Shown here piece by piece: positions 13 to 8,835 of a stretch of DNA of 8,877 nucleotides. Position 1 is the stretch's first letter; each line of letters begins with the position of its first letter. The DNA comes from a virus (taxonomy: Duplodnaviria > Heunggongvirae > Uroviricota > Caudoviricetes): IMG/VR virus record IMGVR_UViG_2660237953_000005, one strand, 5' to 3'. The position numbers and the translations under genes are program-made. The notes beneath the pieces were generated by a model that saw only the letters and a list, made by a program, of their open reading frames with translations, ran no database searches and was not told the origin of the DNA.

Positions 13-414
13 TTAATTCGTGTACGTGATCTGGTACGTGATTTCCGCCATCGCCCAGGTGGCCATCTCATTATCACGTTGATAGTTAAAACCGAGTGGG
101 ATCATGGTGTCGATGAGTCCGGAAAGCACCGGAATATCCTTCATGGCCGGAAATATGGTGTTCTCCATCCACGTATCCAGCTCAGAATCCGGCGCCTGTG
201 CACGGACGAAAACGGCAATATGCAGAACAGCCTGCCAGTCGTCCTCATCCGTCATTTTTCCGGTGTACTGCGCATCACTCAGCCACACCGCCACGGCGGG
301 CAGTTCCTGCGCATCAATAAATGCCGGAAGCCCGTCAAAAAACGTGGCGCTGTCTCCACACTGTTCCCGAAGGCGTGCCAGCACGCTCTGACGGATTTGT
401 GTGTGTCGGTTCAT
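13..414 (-). CDS. U: tail tube terminator protein, lambda gpU-like
   Basis: 133-aa ORF. Shares motifs with my recollection of lambda gpU (ATFFDG, PAVAV, YTG, PDSELD.WME, DIP.LS.LI, ITY.ITY). ATG at 412..414 overlaps the Z stop (ATGA), as in lambda. Confidence 0.85.
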   Translation of the reverse strand: MNRHTQIRQSVLARLREQCGDSATFFDGLPAFIDAQELPAVAVWLSDAQYTGKMTDEDDWQAVLHIAVFVRAQAPDSELDTWMENTIFPAMKDIPVLSGLIDTMIPLGFNYQRDNEMATWAMAEITYQITYTN

Positions 415-998
415 TTACTCAGATGTAACCTCAGTTGTTGTTTCAGGGCATACCCCAGCTGTTTCGGCATTTCCGCAGCAATGATGCGGTCGCGGGCATC
501 TTCAAATGCCTGTGTCAGCGGTCCGGACATCGGGATTTTCACCACATCAATGGGGTAACGATTTTTGCCGTCAATACGCCGCATCACATGCCAGCGACCA
601 TTCGCCAGTTGCTGAATAAACGCATCCCGGAAAAGGTATTTCCCCACTTTCAGTACGCTGCCACGATGACGTGAGTTGCTGCCATGCCGGGAGCGGGCCA
701 GTCTGACCTGTGCGGTACCCAGCTTAATGGCGGGCAGGTTACCCCGGTTAACACGCATGCGGGCATACATTTTTCCTGAGGGGCTGGCTTTAAGCAGCCT
801 GACACGCTCCCTGACCGTTTTCAGGGGAATACCTTTCACCTGGTTATCCCCGGCAACGGTATTCTGCGCAACCTGCCGTGTGGCGACAGAAACAATCTTT
901 GCCGCCACACGGTTTACCGCCCATGCGCTGGTCTGTGGCACCATGCGGGTATCGAGGCTGTTCAGATTGCGGATGGCATTCTCAAGTCCCTTCATCAT
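411..998 (-). CDS. Z: tail completion protein, lambda gpZ-like
   Basis: 195-aa ORF (lambda gpZ is 192 aa). Conserved blocks KGLE, NRVA, RVNRG.LP.IKLG, FIQQL.NGRWHVM.R..GKNRYPIDVVKIPM, LGYAL..QLR. ATG at 996..998. Confidence 0.85.
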   Translation of the reverse strand: MMKGLENAIRNLNSLDTRMVPQTSAWAVNRVAAKIVSVATRQVAQNTVAGDNQVKGIPLKTVRERVRLLKASPSGKMYARMRVNRGNLPAIKLGTAQVRLARSRHGSNSRHRGSVLKVGKYLFRDAFIQQLANGRWHVMRRIDGKNRYPIDVVKIPMSGPLTQAFEDARDRIIAAEMPKQLGYALKQQLRLHLSK

Positions 999-1359
999 AT
1001 CGCCTCATTCTGGCATTATTCTGTGGGGCAGGACTGCCCCGCCTTAACCGGATATAACAGCATCCCCCGTCATCCGGAGTAATACGATCCACAAAGAAAG
1101 AATCATCCCCGATAGTTAACGTATCCTGACGGCGTAACTGCGATATATCTGCCGTTTTCACAAACAGGCACGGTGAGGAATCCTCAAGCCGGATCCCCCC
1201 GGCAACAAAAGAAATACTTTCGGGATCATCAAAAACCCCTGTCAGGTGTGTCCCCTCAAGTTCTCCGGACGTAATGACGGCGCTGATCCCCATATCACGG
1301 AGAATGACTTCATTGACACCGGCAAGCGCAGCATCAAACAGATTATCGAAACCGTCCAC
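982..1359 (-). CDS. FII: head-tail joining (head completion) protein, lambda gpFII-like
   Basis: 125-aa ORF. Conserved FDNLFDAA, GVFDDPE.IS, SSP.LFV.T, QLRR.DTLTIG, VDR..PDDGG. Apparent GTG start at 1357..1359 with AGGAG 5 nt upstream. 3' end overlaps the Z start by 17 nt. Confidence 0.8.
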   Translation of the reverse strand: MDGFDNLFDAALAGVNEVILRDMGISAVITSGELEGTHLTGVFDDPESISFVAGGIRLEDSSPCLFVKTADISQLRRQDTLTIGDDSFFVDRITPDDGGCCYIRLRRGSPAPQNNARMRRYDEGT

Positions 1360-1370
1360 GACATCTCCTG

Positions 1371-1757
1371 TTACTGCCTTTTTGCCAGACCACCTGCCGC
1401 CATGCTGGCAGCCACCTCAGCAGAAACACGAAACGACGTTCCCGGTGAAACAAATATCACTGAACCATTACATTTTGTATGCAGTGTCGCCAGTGCCACC
1501 ACCGTAACCTGCCCCGTTTCGTCTCCGGTAACAATGCCTGGCTGTTCAGGAACTGACTCGCCTTTATGCGCGGTCGGATCATCTTTCGATGGTGAGTACG
1601 TATCCGGCTCTGCGACCTCCCCCGCATCTCCAAGCTCTTCCTCCAGTTCCGCCACTCGCTGCGCAATATCTGCCGCACTACCGGAGACATCCGGTTCACG
1701 CCCCAGCCTCTCAGCCAGCTCACAAAGACGTTTCAGGTTTTCTTCTTTCGTAGCCAT
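1371..1757 (-). CDS. FI: DNA-packaging accessory protein, lambda gpFI-like
   Basis: Homology to lambda gpFI (RVAEL.EEL, VTVVAL..LHT, PGT.FRVSA.VAA.M...GLA). Chosen start is the ATG at 1755..1757 (MATKEENLKRL), which matches the lambda N-terminus and has AGGAG 5 nt upstream. The ORF track's earlier start at 1790 lies inside a hairpin and adds 11 non-homologous residues. Confidence 0.8.
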   Translation of the reverse strand: MATKEENLKRLCELAERLGREPDVSGSAADIAQRVAELEEELGDAGEVAEPDTYSPSKDDPTAHKGESVPEQPGIVTGDETGQVTVVALATLHTKCNGSVIFVSPGTSFRVSAEVAASMAAGGLAKRQ

Positions 1758-1776
1758 ACCCGCTCCTGATTGAATG

Positions 1777-1800
1777 AAAAACGGGAGCATTTAGCTCCCG
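1777..1800 (-). terminator. terminator-like hairpin between E and FI (GC-rich 7-bp stem, 5-nt loop, U5 tract)
   Basis: Plus 1782..1788 cgggagc pairs with 1794..1800 gctcccg around loop attta. On the minus-strand transcript this reads CGGGAGC-UAAAU-GCUCCCG followed by UUUUU (plus 1777..1781). It starts 8 nt after the E stop and ends about 20 nt before the FI start. Confidence 0.4.
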
Positions 1801-1808
1801 CTCACGGA

Positions 1809-2837
1809 TTATTTCACCTGCACCACCACAAACTCATCCGGATCCGGCAGCACCATCAGCGGCGCGGACTGCGTCATGGTGAATTCACGCGCCGGATCAC
1901 CCACGGTCAGCCAGTGTTTCGGATAACGGGAAGACGCCACCACGCCTTCAGACAATGCCTGCGCATCCTGAATGGCACCGTAGCAACGAATACCCTCTGC
2001 GGCCGTATTTCCCAGTACCAGTGTGCCGTCCGGCAGATAACGTTTTTCGGTACCGTCCTCTGCCACATAGGACGTTTTTGCCACCACGATTGCCAGATCA
2101 CCATAATACCCTTTGAAGGACACCACCGCCCCCAGGTCTTTCACTGCCGTTTCCAGCTGTGAATTTGAGCCACGACGGGTATCCAGTTTTTCGCGGAACA
2201 GCTTAAAGCCATTCAGCAGACGCCAGACCTTACCATCCATAATGGCAATATTGATGGTGCCGGAAGCAAAATCACAGTACGCATCCAGATCATGCGTCGG
2301 ATCAAAGGTATCGCGGTCCTGAGCGCTCCACTCCGTCCCTCCTGCCTGCGTAATGTTATTTCCCACCGACCGGCCAAAATCGACCTCAACAGTTTCAAAC
2401 TGCTCTCCTTCCATGGTGTATTTGCCATACAGCACGGCATTCACCGCCTGCATCTCTTCCACCTGGACAATGGCGTGCTCTTCCTGTTTGAGGTTATCGG
2501 TGATGATACGCAGGCGACGGTAAGCCGGGCCGTTCAGCTGGGCCGGATCTTCACCGGGAAGACGCTCCACCGCCTGCTGGTAATTAAATTCGTGTTTCGG
2601 CTTAACGTAGCCCGGGCGCAGTACACGAGTTTCACCGCCACGGTGACGCAACACCTTTCCTTCAACAACCGGGGAGACATAGGCCGCCACCGGCGTTTTT
2701 CCGGTAATTTTGTCCAGCATTACCTCTTCGGTATGGAAATTCACCGTACGGCGGAAAAACAGCTCCAGAAACAGCGCACGAAATTTAACTTTTTGTTCGG
2801 TATAACCGAGTAACTGGCGGGTCGTAAACAATCCCAT
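1809..2837 (-). CDS. E: major capsid protein, lambda gpE-like
   Basis: 342-aa ORF (lambda gpE is 341 aa). Extensive conserved blocks: PGYVKPKHE, AIVQVEEMQAV.AVL.GKYTM.GE, NNITQ.GGTEWS, KLDTRRGSNS.LETAVKDLG, LGNT, GDPAREFTM.QSAPLM.L.DPDEFV.VQ. ATG at 2835..2837. Confidence 0.92.
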   Translation of the reverse strand: MGLFTTRQLLGYTEQKVKFRALFLELFFRRTVNFHTEEVMLDKITGKTPVAAYVSPVVEGKVLRHRGGETRVLRPGYVKPKHEFNYQQAVERLPGEDPAQLNGPAYRRLRIITDNLKQEEHAIVQVEEMQAVNAVLYGKYTMEGEQFETVEVDFGRSVGNNITQAGGTEWSAQDRDTFDPTHDLDAYCDFASGTINIAIMDGKVWRLLNGFKLFREKLDTRRGSNSQLETAVKDLGAVVSFKGYYGDLAIVVAKTSYVAEDGTEKRYLPDGTLVLGNTAAEGIRCYGAIQDAQALSEGVVASSRYPKHWLTVGDPAREFTMTQSAPLMVLPDPDEFVVVQVK

Positions 2838-2894: not shown

Positions 2895-3242
2895 TTACGG
2901 CAGCGCTGCGTGACTCAGGGCACTGCCGGCAAAGGCATTCGCCTTTTTGTGTGTATCCACTCTCTCAGGCCAGTGGATGGCCTCCGTCGCAAAGGTCCCC
3001 GACTTGTAATACGTCAGCACCGTCTCTGTACCTTCAAGCGGCAGTACCAGTATGCCAACCACATGGCCTGCCTTCTGTCCGTCCCAGACCACCAGTTTCC
3101 CGGTATCCTCATCCAGCATCAGGGGCGTCAGAGCCGGTGTTGCCGAGGAAATCCCGCTGCAGCCTGTGGCGGTATGGGCCGGATCATTACCGGCAAAAAT
3201 ACGTACTTCCGCACGCTGTTCAGTGATGGTTTTCGTTACCAT
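2895..3242 (-). CDS. D: head decoration protein, lambda gpD-like
   Basis: 115-aa ORF (lambda gpD is 110 aa). Conserved DPAHTAT, TPLMLD, KLV.WDG, VGIL, YKSGTF, WPE, AFAG. ATG at 3240..3242 with GAGG about 10 nt upstream. Confidence 0.85.
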   Translation of the reverse strand: MVTKTITEQRAEVRIFAGNDPAHTATGCSGISSATPALTPLMLDEDTGKLVVWDGQKAGHVVGILVLPLEGTETVLTYYKSGTFATEAIHWPERVDTHKKANAFAGSALSHAALP

Positions 3243-3301
3243 ATTGTAAAAACCTCATATTGATGGTCAGCACTGACTTCATGGCATGGCCATGAGCATT
3301 T

Positions 3302-4156
3302 TCACGTCCGCATCACCGTCTGCTGACGTCTGTGGCACGCCACCCTGTACCGCTGCCGGTGAATGGTTCGCCATGNNNNNNNNNNNNNNNNNNNNNNNNN
3401 NNNNNNNNNNNNNNNNNNNNNNNNNNNNNNNNNNNNNNNNNNNNNNNNNNNNNNNNNNNNNNNNNNNNNNNNNNNNNNNNNNNNNNNNNNNNNNNNNNNN
3501 NNNNNNNNNNNNNNNNNNNNNNNNNNNNNNNNNNNNNNNNNNNNNNNNNNTTCAGCCTGCGCCTCTGCCCCTTTTGCCTCATCCAGGGCCATAATCTGAT
3601 CACGAAGTGAGGGTCCGGCATTCGCCTGCGGTGAAGCAGCCAGAATCGGACGGGCTTTTTCCACCGTCATCTCCGGCATCGCCGCCAGCGTTGCCGCCAG
3701 TTGTTCACGTCCTTTCGCCTCTTCACATGCCATAATGCGATCGGCTTCACTCTGCGCAGATACACCAGATTGTTGCGGTGCCGCCACGGCCAGAATCGCC
3801 CGGGCCTGCTCAACGCTCATACCCTGTTGCCCTGCCAGCATCGTGGCCAGTTGTTCACGTCCTTTCGCTTCCTGACACGTCAGGATCCCCATCACTCGCT
3901 GGTTCTCCTGCGCGGCAGCCTCCGTTGCAGTTAATTGCGGCATAGTGCCTCCTGTATCGTGTGTGTTCAGCGTCGCAGCCATCACGCTGATGGCGTCCGA
4001 CGCATTGATTAATTCATCCGCCAGTTCGGCCTCAATACCGGACTGACCTTCAAAAACGGCGGCCTCTGTTCCCATAACCGCATCCACAGATAAACCGGTA
4101 TACATCGCCACTTTTTCAGCAAACATCCGGCGCGCCGCATCAATGCGCTGCTGCAT
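3302..4156 (-). CDS. nu3: possible nested scaffold protein Nu3, translated from an internal in-frame start within C; start and end both uncertain
   Basis: In lambda, Nu3 is the C-terminal part of the C reading frame made from an internal start near C residue 239. Here in-frame ATGs lie at 4154..4156 (MQQRIDAARR) and 4124..4126 (MFAEKV), the region aligning with the lambda Nu3 start. Neither has a convincing SD. The 3' end is affected by the gap. Confidence 0.3.
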   Translation of the reverse strand: MQQRIDAARRMFAEKVAMYTGLSVDAVMGTEAAVFEGQSGIEAELADELINASDAISVMAATLNTHDTGGTMPQLTATEAAAQENQRVMGILTCQEAKGREQLATMLAGQQGMSVEQARAILAVAAPQQSGVSAQSEADRIMACEEAKGREQLAATLAAMPEMTVEKARPILAASPQANAGPSLRDQIMALDEAKGAEAQAEXXXXXXXXXXXXXXXXXXXXXXXXXXXXXXXXXXXXXXXXXXXXXXXXXXXXXXXXXXXWRTIHRQRYRVACHRRQQTVMRT

Positions 4157-4846
4157 GTCCTGGCGAACCTTTGCTGGCAGGGATTCAAACTGATTGCCAT
4201 CCACCTTGTGCGATCCGGCGTAAATCAGCGTGATATCCACACCGGCCTGTGCCAGATGACCGGCATAGCTGACATGGCCCATCATCACCCCAATGGAGCC
4301 GATACGGGATGTCTGGGTAACCAGCCGTCGGGAGCAGGCCGATGCCAGTAACATGGCGGCTGAACAGGCCGTGTCATTGCACAGTGCCCAGACAGGCTTC
4401 AGCTGCCGGAGACGGTAAATCATGTCAGCGCAGTCAAACGCGCCGGTGGCCTGCCCGCCAGAACTGTCAATGTCCAGCAGTACGCCCCGTACCTGAGTGT
4501 CCGCCATTGCCTGCTGAAGACAGGCGACAATGCCGTCATAGCCAGTCATTCCGGAAAATGGCCGCATGCCACCCAGCCGGTGTACCAGCGTGCCGGTCAC
4601 CGGCAGTACAGCAATACCGTTCACCACCCGGTAAACACGGGCAGGTCGTTTGCCTCCGGCCATGTACTCGTCCGTTTCAGCCAGCATCCCGGGAGCGTCA
4701 AGCTGTACCTGCTGTTGCGGTACCGAAAGGCTTGCTGCGCCCATCTCACGCCCGAGCGCGCAAAAGAAAACCCGCGCATAGGCGGGCTCCAGAAGCAGCG
4801 GCTCATTGAATGCCGCAGCGATAATATGTGAAAGATTACGTCTCAC
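3302..4846 (-). CDS. C: capsid assembly protease C with C-terminal scaffold (Nu3) domain, lambda gpC-like; interrupted by an assembly gap, so the 3' end and stop are unreliable
   Basis: N-terminal 300 aa match lambda gpC (AFNEPL.LEPAYARVFFCAL, NGIAVLPV.GTLV, GMTGY.GI...LQQA, GAFDCAD.I.R.R..KPVWAL.ND, LLASA.SRRLVTQT.R.GSIGVMM.H, TLIY.GSHKVDGN, YTGLSV, TEAAV). Apparent GTG start at 4844..4846 overlaps the B stop by 11 nt. The ORF runs through the 175-N gap (3376..3550), so the frame and stop after the gap are arbitrary. Confidence 0.75.
   Translation of the reverse strand: MRRNLSHIIAAAFNEPLLLEPAYARVFFCALGREMGAASLSVPQQQVQLDAPGMLAETDEYMAGGKRPARVYRVVNGIAVLPVTGTLVHRLGGMRPFSGMTGYDGIVACLQQAMADTQVRGVLLDIDSSGGQATGAFDCADMIYRLRQLKPVWALCNDTACSAAMLLASACSRRLVTQTSRIGSIGVMMGHVSYAGHLAQAGVDITLIYAGSHKVDGNQFESLPAKVRQDMQQRIDAARRMFAEKVAMYTGLSVDAVMGTEAAVFEGQSGIEAELADELINASDAISVMAATLNTHDTGGTMPQLTATEAAAQENQRVMGILTCQEAKGREQLATMLAGQQGMSVEQARAILAVAAPQQSGVSAQSEADRIMACEEAKGREQLAATLAAMPEMTVEKARPILAASPQANAGPSLRDQIMALDEAKGAEAQAEXXXXXXXXXXXXXXXXXXXXXXXXXXXXXXXXXXXXXXXXXXXXXXXXXXXXXXXXXXXWRTIHRQRYRVACHRRQQTVMRT
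3376..3550. other. assembly gap (175 N) inside the C/nu3 coding region
   Basis: Run of n characters. It is flanked on the 5' side by tandem repeats, consistent with a collapsed or unresolved repeat. Confidence 0.99.
3551..3895 (-). repeat. in-frame tandem repeat array (at least 3 copies, unit about 141-159 bp, 47-53 aa) in the scaffold-domain part of C/nu3, abutting the gap
   Basis: Exact 23-nt repeat gccagttgttcacgtcctttcgc at 3696..3718 and 3846..3868 (150 bp apart). Protein copies VMGILTCQEAKGREQLATMLAGQQGMSVEQARAILAVAAPQ / IMACEEAKGREQLAATLAAMPEMTVEKARPILAASPQ / IMALDEAKGAEAQAE-(gap). Unit boundaries at plus 3590..3595, 3731..3736, 3890..3895. Confidence 0.8.
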
Positions 4847-6429
4847 GTGATGTTGTCTCCTCTTCCGGCCTGCGACTCTCCGCTATCTGCTGCTGATACG
4901 CCTGGGCTATCCACACCGGACGTGAGAGTCCGGCTTTTTCGCGCTCTGCGGATTCCCTGACCTGCTGGCGGAAAATGTCCTGATAATCTTCGCCCATCAG
5001 TGCCAGTTCTTTCTCATACGTGCTCAGTCCGGCCTCAATGCGCATCACCGATTCCTGGACCTCCTTGAGCCCGTCAATGGCCATTCTTCCGGAGCTAATC
5101 CACTCTGCCCGTGACCAGGCTGAACGCGCCTGGTAAAAATCAAAACGCGCCCGTGGCGGACGAATAATCCCCCGAAGAAGCGCCTCTTCCAGCCAGCAGG
5201 AAAACATCTGCGTGGCCAGCCGGGCCGCAATAAATTTTCGCCGCCCCATAAAATAGCGCCACGACTCATTGGCGGAGGCGCGGGCACTTGAGTAACTGAC
5301 CTTCGAGTAATCACGGGACAACTGTTCGTAGGAAACGCCAAGACCGGCTGCAATATACCGCAGCAGCGCCTGTTCAAGCGCCGAAAATCCATTGTCTGAA
5401 TCCTGCGCTGTCTGCAGGTTCAGCGCATCGCCAGGAAAAAAGGTGCGGAATTTTAACACCGCCCAGCGTCACGTTATTCGTGTCATACCAGCGGGTGAAC
5501 TTCTCCAGAATATTAATAAGCGGATTATCCTGCTGACCTTGCGGTGCCCCCGCGATATATTCAAATGCCTTTTCGGTATCAAGTTCACTTTCGATTGTGG
5601 CTGCATACATCGCCTTCACAATGGCCGACTGAAGCTGCGTGGCCTGCAGGGAGTCCAGCATCTTCATCCGCTCCATTACGCTGTAAAACTGATTAGCCCC
5701 ACGGGTCTGCCCGTCCTCCACCGGCTCAAAAATATGCAGCATGGCCGGACGCCCGGTGGGAAGCTCACGCGGGATCCGCTCCCAGCGTCCGGCACCAGAG
5801 AACGGAAAATCATCCTCACAGATATGGTACGCAATCGCCCGCCCATACCGATCGACCTCAACCCCGGCCCGCAGAAAGTGGTTCCCCATACCGTGTCCTG
5901 GCGTGTCCACCCGTTTCGGACTCACGGCTTTAAAACGCGTACGGAATAACTGCGTGGTTTCCGTATCCCAGACCGGCTGCACAAAGATTTCGCCGTTAAA
6001 GGCATGCACGCCCACCCCTTCACGGATAAATTCCGTAAACGTGCGTTTCCCTTCCACGTCGATCTCGCCAAACATTCCTTCTGCGTATTCCGACCAGGCT
6101 GCTTCCACCTCCCCGACAAAACTTTTTGCCGTGGTCTCCCGCATCCCCAGCCAACGCCAGTTCAGACGGTAGCTGATAAGAAACATGTGCCCGACGATAT
6201 GATCCTTATGCAGGGCCACCGCATTAGCCGCGATACCGTTATTGCGCACCAGATCATCTGCCCGGGCATTCCCCAGACGCAATGCAGGCAACAGGGCCGC
6301 ATCGGCACTCTGCGCCGGTGGTAACCACTCTGCCATTTGCCCGCCAAATCCTGCGCCGCCTCCGTTGTAGCTGAGACTCTCACGAAGCGGAACGCCGTTC
6401 ACATCAATCAGGACAGGCGTTCGTTTCAT
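4836..6429 (-). pseudogene. B: portal protein, lambda gpB-like; as assembled, the frame is broken by a 1-nt indel in a homopolymer (A6 on plus, 5436..5441), giving two ORFs (5374..6429 and 4836..5459)
   Basis: The upstream ORF (351 aa, ATG 6427..6429, MKRTPVLIDVNGVPL...) and the downstream ORF (ending ...RRPEEETTSRET) together equal the ~533-aa lambda portal. Homology continues across the junction only after a frame change within ccgcaccTTTTTTcctggcgat: HLF in one frame, then FPGDALNLQTAQDSDNGFSALEQ in the next. Confidence 0.85.
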
Positions 6430-6629
6430 AACCTCACTCCCAGCGGTCGGCGGCGTCGGGTCGTACCCAGAACCGACTCCGCATCGTTGATCGCACGGTT
6501 AAGCTCATTCAGGGACGCTGCCGTATATTCGATCCTGCGACCGTCTTTCTGTACCGACACAACCCGTTTACCGGTTAATAAATCAAGGCGCGCCTGACGC
6601 AGCGCCTGCAGTTCAGCGACTGTAACCAT
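6426..6629 (-). CDS. W: head completion / head-tail connector protein, lambda gpW-like
   Basis: 67-aa ORF (lambda gpW is 68 aa). Conserved L.TGKRV..VQKDGRR.E.TA.S and the RRR motif near the C-terminus. ATG at 6627..6629 directly follows the A stop, with GGAGGAG upstream. Stop overlaps the B start (ATGA). Confidence 0.85.
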   Translation of the reverse strand: MVTVAELQALRQARLDLLTGKRVVSVQKDGRRIEYTAASLNELNRAINDAESVLGTTRRRRPLGVRL

Positions 6630-8540
6630 TCACTCCTCCGGACAGCTTCGCTGCCAGTTCTTCAAGGGTCGGTTGTGCAGTTGCATCCTTGCGGGATGCA
6701 ACTGCACAGCCAGATCAAGTTGCCAGCGTTGCACGGACACACGTAATGCCGCATAGGCATACACCAGGCAGTCCAGCGCTTCGTTACGCCGCTTTTTGTT
6801 ATCCCACAACAGACGCATCTTTCCTTTTTCCCACTTTTCCACCAGTTCCTCCGCCACCAGTTGTTGTGCCTCTGTCTGCGAAAAAATCTCCGGATTATCA
6901 GGAAAGCGGATGGCATACGATGTGGCCTCATTCACAGGGGTGGGATCGGCCTTCATTCGGGCATAGAGAATTTCTTTTGCGGTATCCGTCCCCACCTCAC
7001 ACAGATACACACCCCGCTGATTGCGGGTTTTCGGCATGGTGATCACCGGCTTGCCATAGACAGAGGCACCTTTTACCGGCAGTACCCGGAAAATACCGTG
7101 TTTTTTTGACCTCTGATACACGATTTCGCCATCGATCCCCCCGATATCCCAGCAGACACGGGAAATGGTCATTTCGGTACCGTCTGCATGGCGGTATTTT
7201 TTATTGATCGCCGCATCCACACGTAACAGCGTCTCTTCCTCATCAGGACGTCCCATGATGATGATTTTATCCACCAGAAAGGCTTCCTCTCCCGGAGCCC
7301 ACCCCCAGACATACATCTCAAAACGGTTTCGCTGCGAGTCAATGCCCGCCGTCAGATAAACCACCCGGACAGGCACCGTTGCCGTGTAAGGCACAACCTT
7401 ATCCATCAGTACCTGGTGATCGAGTTTTTCGCCCACGGCCTCTTCCCAGGTCTCGCCCAGCGTGGTGTTCACAAAAGTTTTCACGCCGTTGGGATCTTTC
7501 AGTGCATCCAGCCAGTCACAGACTATCTGTACCCTGGTGGTGAACGGACTGTACGCCGTCCATATATGGAAAGTGATGGAGCGCGGCGGCGGAATTTCAT
7601 TACCCGAAGCACTGAAAAACGTCAGACCGTCACACGTCCACATCCCGGTATTGTCACAAATCCAGCGCCCCCCGGTCTGATCAAGTTCAGACTGACGGAT
7701 CACGCAGCCATTATGTTCACACAGGTAATACACCGTTTCCGGTTTACCCTTCTCCCATTTCAGGCCAAACGACGTCGCATCATCGCCAAACTTCAGATAC
7801 TGCTCCTCCCCGCAATGAGGGCAAGGGACATAAAACCGCATGAAATGCGCAGATTCATTCGCAGCTTTTTCAATCTGACAGGAGCCTTTAATTTTTGGCG
7901 TTGAACCGCGTATGGATTTTGGCCATACCGAACCTTCAATACGTTTATCGCCAAGCAGTGTTGGCGAACCTTCTTTTTCCACATCCGGTTCAAACGAGGA
8001 GAGTTCGTCATAGCAGACCACATCGACAGATTTTTCACGGTAGTTTTTGGCAGCAGCACCACCCAAACACCAGAACCCCACACCAGAGGAAAAACGCTTC
8101 AGTGTGAGCGTATTATCCCGGTGTTTCCGGCCCAGCCAGGGAGAAAGTTTTTTCAGGCAAGGAACATCACGAATTGTTGCTTCCACGTGAGACTTCATAA
8201 AATCTTCAGCAGCTGAGTCCGTCGGCTGAAAAAGAAGAGTGTTGCGGGATTTGTGCTCAATAAAATACCCGATCACACCAAGCACCATTTTTGTATAACC
8301 AACACGGGCAGATTTAATCAGGTTAACTGTACGAATCTCGTCATTGCCCATGCAGTTCATGATGGCGACCTGAAACTGCAGCGTTTTCCATTCCCCCTCA
8401 CCGTATGACGATTCTTTAGGCAGGTAATAATTTTGATCGGCCCATTCTACAGCCGTCACCGGCAATACCCTGACCAGTGGCTGCAGTGCGATAGTGACTG
8501 CCACCATCATATTACTCAGTTGTTGTTCTGATATATTCAT
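6630..8540 (-). CDS. A: terminase large subunit, lambda gpA-like
   Basis: Strong homology across about 600 aa (TAVEWAD.NYYLPKES, KSARVGY.KM, YFIEHK.RNTL, RDNTLT.KRF, GFWCLGG.AAKNYREKSVDV, GSPT.LGDKRIEGSVWPKSIRGSTPK, HFMRF.V.CPHCGEEQYLKFGD, FHIWTAYSPFTT, KTFVNTTLGETWE, YLTAGIDSQ, GIFRV.P.KGASVYGKPV, WD.KKRRNEALDC). Start taken at the MNISEQQ methionine (8538..8540), matching the lambda gpA N-terminus (MNIS...), not the ORF-track start at 8597. The start overlaps the nu1 3' end by 29 nt, similar to lambda. Confidence 0.92.
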   Translation of the reverse strand: MNISEQQLSNMMVAVTIALQPLVRVLPVTAVEWADQNYYLPKESSYGEGEWKTLQFQVAIMNCMGNDEIRTVNLIKSARVGYTKMVLGVIGYFIEHKSRNTLLFQPTDSAAEDFMKSHVEATIRDVPCLKKLSPWLGRKHRDNTLTLKRFSSGVGFWCLGGAAAKNYREKSVDVVCYDELSSFEPDVEKEGSPTLLGDKRIEGSVWPKSIRGSTPKIKGSCQIEKAANESAHFMRFYVPCPHCGEEQYLKFGDDATSFGLKWEKGKPETVYYLCEHNGCVIRQSELDQTGGRWICDNTGMWTCDGLTFFSASGNEIPPPRSITFHIWTAYSPFTTRVQIVCDWLDALKDPNGVKTFVNTTLGETWEEAVGEKLDHQVLMDKVVPYTATVPVRVVYLTAGIDSQRNRFEMYVWGWAPGEEAFLVDKIIIMGRPDEEETLLRVDAAINKKYRHADGTEMTISRVCWDIGGIDGEIVYQRSKKHGIFRVLPVKGASVYGKPVITMPKTRNQRGVYLCEVGTDTAKEILYARMKADPTPVNEATSYAIRFPDNPEIFSQTEAQQLVAEELVEKWEKGKMRLLWDNKKRRNEALDCLVYAYAALRVSVQRWQLDLAVQLHPARMQLHNRPLKNWQRSCPEE

Positions 8541-8835
8541 CGAGTAAATCCGGTAATTTATCCCCCGCACGCGCGCACTGATTCGCTCCCTTAGCAATAA
8601 GGATTTTCAGATGATCAATATGACGCGGCGTTAAATCCGGGAACTGTCGTTGCATGGACAAAGGAATGGAGTCAAGCGTACTGGATAAAGCCATCGCCAG
8701 CTTACTAAGGGCAAAAATACAAAATCCGGTATCGATAAGATTTCCTTTTGACACCTGATTTTTTAACTGCTGTGCGACAGCCTGTTCTGCGGTCAGTTCC
8801 CATCTGGCAATGAGTAGTTTGAGGTGTACTGGCAA
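8512..8835 (-). CDS. nu1: terminase small subunit, lambda Nu1-like, C-terminal region only; the N-terminal DNA-binding part is not found in frame within the window
   Basis: The C-terminal ~100 aa align with lambda Nu1 (LT..QA.AQ.LKN, FC.F.LS..A...S.LD..PLS.QR.FP.L..RH.D.LK, LP.LL.EYI). The ORF-track start is a TTG at 8833..8835. The same frame has a TAG at 8845..8847 and a TAA at 8863..8865 immediately upstream. Confidence 0.55.
   Translation of the reverse strand: MPVHLKLLIARWELTAEQAVAQQLKNQVSKGNLIDTGFCIFALSKLAMALSSTLDSIPLSMQRQFPDLTPRHIDHLKILIAKGANQCARAGDKLPDLLDEYIRTTTE

Follow-up and report, generated by a model that had tools for sequence, protein, structure and literature searches.

The repeat in the protease/scaffold gene of a phage-21-type lambdoid prophage is the annotated Tri-box array, and a run of Ns very probably covers the rest of its third unit

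Scaffold function inside the HK97-fold procapsid is served by helical tethers such as the C-terminal coat-binding helix-turn-helix of the P22 scaffolding protein and the delta domain of HK97, which are removed before or during maturation. The P22 scaffold exits intact, and in HK97 the scaffold forms a fusion with the capsid protein and not with a protease. In lambda, the gene for the S49 prohead protease gpC also encodes the scaffold gpNu3 from an in-frame internal start. Nu3 is reported to interact with itself and with C, B and E, and to be needed to incorporate the portal (PMC3224144). In the GenBank record of the phage 21 head operon (M81255.1), gene 5 encodes a protein of 501 aa, and the nested gene 6 encodes 200 aa from an internal ATG with its own RBS. 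Three repeat_region features are annotated within gene 6 as 'Tri1 box', 'Tri box' and 'Tri3 box', each with the remark 'function unknown; putative'. The two products are named 'capsid protease/scaffolding protein' and 'scaffolding protein' in the phage 21 genome OL657228.1.

In this study, we analysed a window of 8,877 nucleotides, the whole stretch of DNA presented here, in which a tandem repeat in a C/Nu3-type gene runs into a block of Ns. Judged from the GenBank feature table of M81255.1, this repeat is already known and is the annotated Tri-box array of the lambda C/Nu3 analogue of phage 21. Genes in the window were assigned with Pfam and with tblastn using phage 21 proteins. All of them are encoded on the minus strand and follow the gene order of the lambda head and tail operon, with the synteny U-Z-FII-FI-E-D-[C/Nu3]-B-W-A (Table 1). 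On this strand, the portal gene precedes the S49 protease/scaffold gene, and the decoration and major capsid genes follow it, which is the placement of the gene in the lambda family.

Table 1. Positions of the genes, domains, repeat units and gap in the window
Feature	Position	Strand	Remark
U	13-414	-	
FII	982-1359	-	
FI	1371-1790	-	
Major capsid protein E/gp7	1809-2837	-	Phage_cap_E PF03864
Decoration protein D/shp	2895-3242	-	HDPD PF02924
3' end of protease/scaffold CDS, MANHSPAAVQGGVPQTSADGDADVKMLMAMP and stop	3279..3375	-	stop TGA at 3279-3281; frame 1 translation
Run of 175 N	3376..3550		113 nt in relatives
Tri unit 3, first 16 codons, QIMALDEAKGAEAQAE	3551-3598	-	abuts the Ns; start of 'Tri3 box' of M81255.1
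Tri unit 2, 47 aa (141 nt), RIMACEEAKGREQLAATLAAMPEMTVEKARPILAASPQANAGPSLRD	3599-3739	-	'Tri box' of M81255.1
Tri unit 1, 53 aa (159 nt), RVMGILTCQEAKGREQLATMLAGQQGMSVEQARAILAVAAPQQSGVSAQSEAD	3740-3898	-	'Tri1 box' of M81255.1
Internal in-frame start and RBS of nested scaffold protein (gene 6 / Nu3 analogue)	3941..3954	-	ATG 3943-3941; AGGAGG-type RBS 3948-3954
S49 peptidase domain, residues 147-292	3971..4408	-	Pfam PF01343
5' part of gene 5 / C-like prohead protease-scaffold CDS, 432 codons to gap	3551..4846	-	GTG start at 4846, open frame
S49 protease gene	start at 4846	-	
Portal, two ORFs	4836-6429	-	PF05136
W/gp3	6426-6629	-	
Large terminase	6630-8597	-	
Small terminase, partial	beyond 8512	-	

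The identity of the gene was examined on the window's own translation (3551-4846, minus strand), in which the S49 peptidase family scored 115.7 bits (E=2.4e-33) against a cut-off of 24.9. The visible protein was 94% identical to residues 1-432 of phage 21 gp5, and its GTG start agreed with the start annotated in M81255.1. Beyond the Ns, gp5 residues 471-501 matched 3374..3282 at 97% in tblastn. By homology, the gene is a phage-21-type counterpart of lambda C/Nu3, that is, an S49 prohead protease gene with a nested scaffold gene. The minus strand reads AGGAGGcactATG at the internal start, and the start and RBS occupy the position annotated for gene 6 in both M81255.1 and OL657228.1. From these signals, a nested scaffold protein of 200 aa when complete is predicted. 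Residues 300-501 had no match to a Pfam family and were matched by PHROGs families in three stretches. A PDB sequence search with the 200-aa scaffold protein returned nothing at E<=1.

The window copy was compared with the described systems. It shares with genes 5 and 6 of phage 21 the GTG start, the internal start, the RBS, the positions of the units as far as they are visible and the neighbouring genes, and differs from them by substitutions only (~6-7% of the DNA), apart from the N gap, a frameshifted portal gene and a different small terminase. Lambda gpNu3 is nearly equal in length (201 aa against 200 aa in the phage 21 type) and shares homology in a unit, RIMGILNCEEAHGREEQARVLAETPGMTVKTARRILAAAPQ, and in the C-terminal tail. 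However, the only unit of lambda Nu3 follows a long linker without counterpart in the phage-21-type protein, and Nu3 starts further upstream, inside the protease end, whereas the scaffold of the phage 21 type, with three units, begins shortly ahead of unit 1. In the window, at least 2.3 units lie directly behind the internal start, and the gene thus departs from the lambda-type single-unit architecture, although its scaffold is a homologue of lambda Nu3 nonetheless. The gpC homologue of the Salmonella phage Gifsy-1 and S49 proteins of Salmonella prophages also have three units, identically ordered, and are 57-64% identical to the scaffold part. In this group, unit 3 retains the canonical KGREELA core, whereas the phage 21 type has KGAEAQAE.

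Two whole Tri boxes and 16 aa of a third are visible in the window, all within the last 116 of the 432 codons open from 4846 to 3551, and the remainder of unit 3 lies under the Ns. The units have the common motif IM..EAKGRE.LA..LA...GMTVE.AR.ILA. The first-pass annotation had placed an in-frame tandem repeat in the scaffold domain at the C-terminal end of a C/Nu3-type gene, with its last visible copy entering the gap, and this description was correct, as was the core motif that it quoted for the translated units. It had also given lambda one clear copy. We confirmed this: lambda Nu3 contains a single unit, to which all three units aligned (E=1e-16, 2e-11 and 1e-8).

We then asked what lies under the Ns. 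The N run corresponds to 113 nt both in phage 21, whose identity to the window is ~92%, and in an E. coli O121 prophage, for which it is 95-98%. Two complete near-identical genomes were retrieved with an exact 60-nt pattern. In E. coli ECMA0423, identity to the window was 99.97% on one flank and 100% on the other; in S. flexneri SFBU1023, it was 99.8% over 562 nt of the left flank and 99.96% on the right flank. These two genomes carry the same 113 nt at the gap, which encode the remainder of unit 3, KLAACPGMTVENARAVLAAASGRAEPVSASTTAMFEHF. When the 113 nt were inserted into the window, the product was a 501-aa protein with exactly three units, identical to that of SFBU1023. The tail MANHSPAAVQGGVPQTSADGDADVKMLMAMP is in phase with the upstream part at 113 nt, or an equivalent length, and out of phase at 175. 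Because the frame is broken at 175 and restored at 113, the N run is a gap of estimated size and not of true length, and a length-preserving mask was ruled out as its origin. From this comparison, the true content of the gap is almost certainly the 113 nt of the near-identical genomes. A sliding identity profile was also inspected for a divergence hot spot at the gap-equivalent, and only moderate variability was found there (82% identity to phage 21 in one 60-nt block, 100% to the O121 relative).

We conclude that the feature is very probably the triplicated Tri-box module in the scaffold domain of a phage-21-type lambdoid prophage of E. coli or Shigella, with three units in all and the rest of the third in the gap. 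The gap can be filled with confidence from the near-identical genomes, and the appropriate annotation is that of an intact S49 protease/scaffold gene encoding 501 aa, neither truncated nor expanded. The earlier suggestion that the copy number may be under-assembled was not supported, because the 113-nt fill completes unit 3 and adds nothing more.

The repeat itself had been proposed as a likely cause of the assembly break. In this account, three units are present and the tandem repeat broke the assembly by collapse or by ambiguity in the graph. The longest exact DNA match among the units, 23 nt in the EAKGREQLA core shared by units 1 and 2, is in its favour. Deletion and duplication alleles join equivalent unit positions, so that co-resident prophages could differ exactly there. 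Public 'partial' proteins also often begin or end in the array, with 19 of 32 mapped cut ends in residues 317-470, but this tally is biased, since the scaffold region itself had served as the query for these proteins, and we rejected it as proof of breaks linked to the array. Moreover, the gap lies in unit 3, whose longest exact match to units 1 and 2 is 10 nt, and exact matches of the gap-equivalent elsewhere in the window do not exceed 12 nt. Both lengths are below usual assembly k-mers. Direct collapse at unit 3 is therefore unlikely. Related places numbered 2,922 in 1,870 E. coli genomes, with up to five per genome, and paralogous prophages are an equally good cause of a break. Taken together, we regard a break caused by the repeat as unlikely, although the contig-end cuts inside the array suggest that the repeat region may contribute indirectly to assembly breaks. 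Most likely, the gap has another cause, for example co-resident related prophages, including those with length alleles, or local coverage.

Length alleles were tallied in the 120 closest protein clusters at 90% identity, and the numbers are counts of clusters and not abundances. Three full units were found in 16 clusters of ~460-501 aa, which are of the phage 21 type, some with short deletions elsewhere. The largest class, with 64 clusters, consisted of proteins of 482 aa with ~2.4 units, in which the second half of unit 2 is deleted; one of these clusters occurs on at least 1,000 contigs. Two units were found in 25 clusters (451 or 452 aa), four units in two clusters (551 aa; P0002 and P0003), and five or more units in one cluster of 657 aa known from a single record. 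The two-unit form arises by two routes, either as a hybrid of units 1 and 2 joined in the EAKGREQLA core, where the 23-nt exact DNA repeat lies, or by precise loss of unit 2. Proteins that represent length alleles among the relatives are P0002, P0016, P0030, P0085, P0114, P0001 and P0144. In P0144, from another E. coli lineage, there are four full units that are more alike, and a distant stand-alone scaffold, P0297, has two. The allele junctions sit at equivalent positions of different units, as unequal or microhomology-mediated recombination would give.

A broader reading of these alleles is that the Tri array is naturally polymorphic and prone to recombination in E. coli and Shigella prophages, that unit number tunes the binding valency of scaffold and protease, and that the gap in the window could hide a non-standard allele. 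As a whole, we consider this reading quite improbable. The first-pass annotation had treated copy-number variation as a plausible tuning variable for size or assembly. Variants do exist (2, ~2.4, 4, and 5 or more units), but there was no evidence that the number matters to function. Among the records listed, the genomes of phages with three units (42.9-54.4 kb) overlapped in size with those of phages with one unit (41.6-52.4 kb), so an effect of unit number on capsid size is unlikely. In four further proteins (P0084, P0087, P0088 and P0189), unrelated tail-fibre-like sequence is fused right after unit 3. These fusions are likely to be deletions in prophage remnants or assembly chimeras.

A rival explanation is that the gap hides at least one extra unit, so that the locus would have a four-unit or larger allele, a true local expansion beyond the reach of the assembler. 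The 551-aa alleles show that four units can occur with the same flanks, and the extra unit would then lie wholly in the region covered by the gap. The 657-aa allele and the four full units of the other E. coli lineage likewise extend the range, and the stated gap of 175 N is larger than 113. However, both complete genomes with 99.8-100% flank identity have exactly 113 nt at this place. A fourth unit needs ~263 nt, and 175 is nearer 113; it is out of frame anyway and thus an estimate. Four-unit alleles make up only 2 of the 120 closest clusters. We therefore hold an extra unit in the window to be very unlikely, and prefer the reading in which the gap holds only the rest of unit 3.

The units themselves were compared at the DNA and protein levels. 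A search for diverged repeats recovered a 94-nt pair with 73% identity at a spacing of 150 and a 32-nt pair with 75% identity at a spacing of 141. Tandem Repeats Finder, with a minimum score of 30, reported no repeat in the array region, because the DNA copies are too diverged. In BLASTP with compositional adjustment, unit 1 matched unit 2 with 63% identity over 38 aa (E=2e-14) and matched the complete unit 3 of a near-identical genome with 48% identity over 48 aa (E=1e-10). When 38 units from relatives were aligned without gaps, six columns were invariant (A18, G20, E22, A25, L28 and A39) and five more were conserved at 90% or above. A profile of the unit (40 positions) was searched against 1.84 billion representative proteins, of which 406 matched at E<=1e-3. 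Chance similarity in a low-complexity, alanine-rich region, for which the abundance of Ala, Gln and Pro and the blank Tandem Repeats Finder result might speak, is contradicted by the adjusted BLASTP values, the conserved columns and the profile matches, and can be set aside as extremely unlikely. These results demonstrate that the tandem in-frame repeat is real and not an artefact of composition.

We next examined how common the three-unit form is. The array region matched 1,870 of 5,426 complete E. coli genomes and was covered over at least 80% in 1,860-1,865 of them; about one third of complete E. coli genomes have the protease/scaffold gene. Among 60 evenly sampled complete E. coli genomes, 58 carried all three units, collinear and at full length, at the best place in the genome. 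DNA-level matches with the span seen in phage 21 came from 19 records of the phage collection. At the protein level there were 123 phage matches, 20 of which (the phage 21 group and Gifsy-1) covered the whole scaffold protein and 103 of which covered less than 80%. Nearly all of the records listed with less than 80% cover match over one unit only. The one-unit records listed comprise lambda, 434, N15, phi80, HK225, HK629/630, mEp237, Stx1a phages, Xylella Sano and Burkholderia AH2. A single matched stretch was likewise found in 129 of the best 150 of the 406 profile matches. This stretch lies near the C-terminus of S49 proteins of 400-550 aa or in stand-alone proteins of 120-200 aa.

The flanks of the unit in lambda are collinear with the sequence upstream of unit 1 and with the tail after unit 3. 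Since lambda and most relatives have one unit, the triplication is old, internal and lineage-wide, and not peculiar to the window. As far as sequence comparison goes, three units are the norm of the phage 21 head module family. The array had initially been presented as a notable expansion, which is at odds with its standard place in this module and its presence in 1,860-1,865 complete E. coli genomes. A recent local expansion, or an under-assembled repeat, was considered and rejected: the units are 73-75% identical at the DNA level, their longest exact match is 23 nt, and the copy number equals that of the close relatives. Three copies had been expected to be ordinary family architecture if close relatives, lambda included, carried them and the gap added none. 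Close relatives do share three copies, and the gap-equivalent holds no further copy, but lambda has one. The triple repeat was annotated before and the gene is common in E. coli, so that the discovery value is small.

The fold of the units was predicted with AlphaFold2. For the 199-aa scaffold protein (23-sequence alignment), three helices were predicted per unit with pLDDT 82-89, the linkers had low confidence, and the pTM was 0.31. For a single unit (38-sequence alignment), the mean pLDDT was 83.4, the core reached 91-93, and the pTM was 0.63. The low linker confidence and the pTM of 0.31 mean that the relative arrangement of the units is undefined. These models suggest that each unit is an independent small three-helix module on flexible linkers. 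With the whole scaffold model, Foldseek had no significant match in the PDB, and among viral models it found only local matches of 46-49 residues to other phage S49 proteins. Tandem three-helix-bundle binding modules, such as staphylococcal protein A domains, the GA module and UBA/CUE domains, were named among the closest systems. No sequence or fold match between the array and the P22 scaffold or the HK97 delta domain was found with the PDB sequence search and Foldseek. The Tri unit, which recurs in residues 300-501 of the reconstructed protein (window 3279-3947), is also a candidate for a new domain family, with no Pfam model, 406 profile matches and a confidently predicted three-helix fold.

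A role for the array can be proposed by analogy with lambda Nu3 and C. Gene 5, the analogue of lambda C, would supply the N-terminal S49 prohead protease, and initiation at 3943 would yield only the last 200 aa, the scaffold protein encoded by gene 6, the analogue of Nu3. Because this internal start is in frame, protease and scaffold would both carry the three-unit array (~40 aa per unit, with Pro/Ala/Gln-rich linkers). The units may act as protein-protein interaction modules that hold the scaffold and the protease in the assembling procapsid through the major capsid protein, the portal, the protease and other scaffold molecules. With three of them, binding might then be multivalent, and the protease would remove the scaffold domain after assembly. 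More generally, the Tri unit is a widespread and well-conserved three-helix module of phage scaffold and protease proteins with a putative binding role. The natural alleles in unit number could be ready material for studying how lambda-type scaffolds engage the procapsid.

The state of the source prophage was also considered. The portal gene is read as two ORFs on the minus strand (5374-6429 and 4836-5459), owing to a one-base insertion in a T run at 5436-5441, which is TTTTTT in the window and TTTT-C in phage 21. No indel was found between the window and S. flexneri SFBU1023 at this run. Since SFBU1023 has the same frameshift, it is probably genuine, and the prophage is probably defective. 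The protease/scaffold copy of the window, in a prophage that is probably defective, may not be under selection.

Several further observations were made along the window. In the large terminase gene, two compensating one-base indels, 128 nt apart, separate the window from SFBU1023 at ~7943 and ~7815. The window's terminase frame is collinear with phage 21 gp2, and SFBU1023 would then read ~43 codons out of frame. At the 3' end of the same gene (6616-6711), the match to the final 27 residues of phage 21 gp2 lies in another frame than the rest. In the window, the terminase ORF stops at 6630, immediately ahead of the W/gp3 start, and its C-terminus is thus unlike that of phage 21. Within the scaffold gene, the pattern TTGYN6TTGY matched on the plus strand at 3691-3704 and 3925-3938, and homologous sites are annotated as CII binding sites in OL657228.1. 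Two observed matches against 1.62 expected are at chance level and give no support for a function as CII binding sites here. The O121 prophage (L002) is 100% identical to the window type from ~nt 900 of gene 5 to the gene end and only 88-98% identical, mostly 92-97%, upstream of it. A recombination junction in this prophage therefore lies at gene 5 nt ~880-900 (window ~3950), close to the internal scaffold start and the boundary of protease and scaffold. The small terminase (8527-8805) has 39% identity to phage 21 gp1, against 88-97% for other head proteins; judging by this drop, it is a mosaic boundary, probably with a different cos-binding specificity. The FI-like protein (Pfam Packaging_FI; 1566-1757 in the gene at 1371-1790) has 58% identity to phage 21 ORF1 over 64 residues only, and by the same comparison a second mosaic boundary lies here, immediately downstream of the gene for the major capsid protein.
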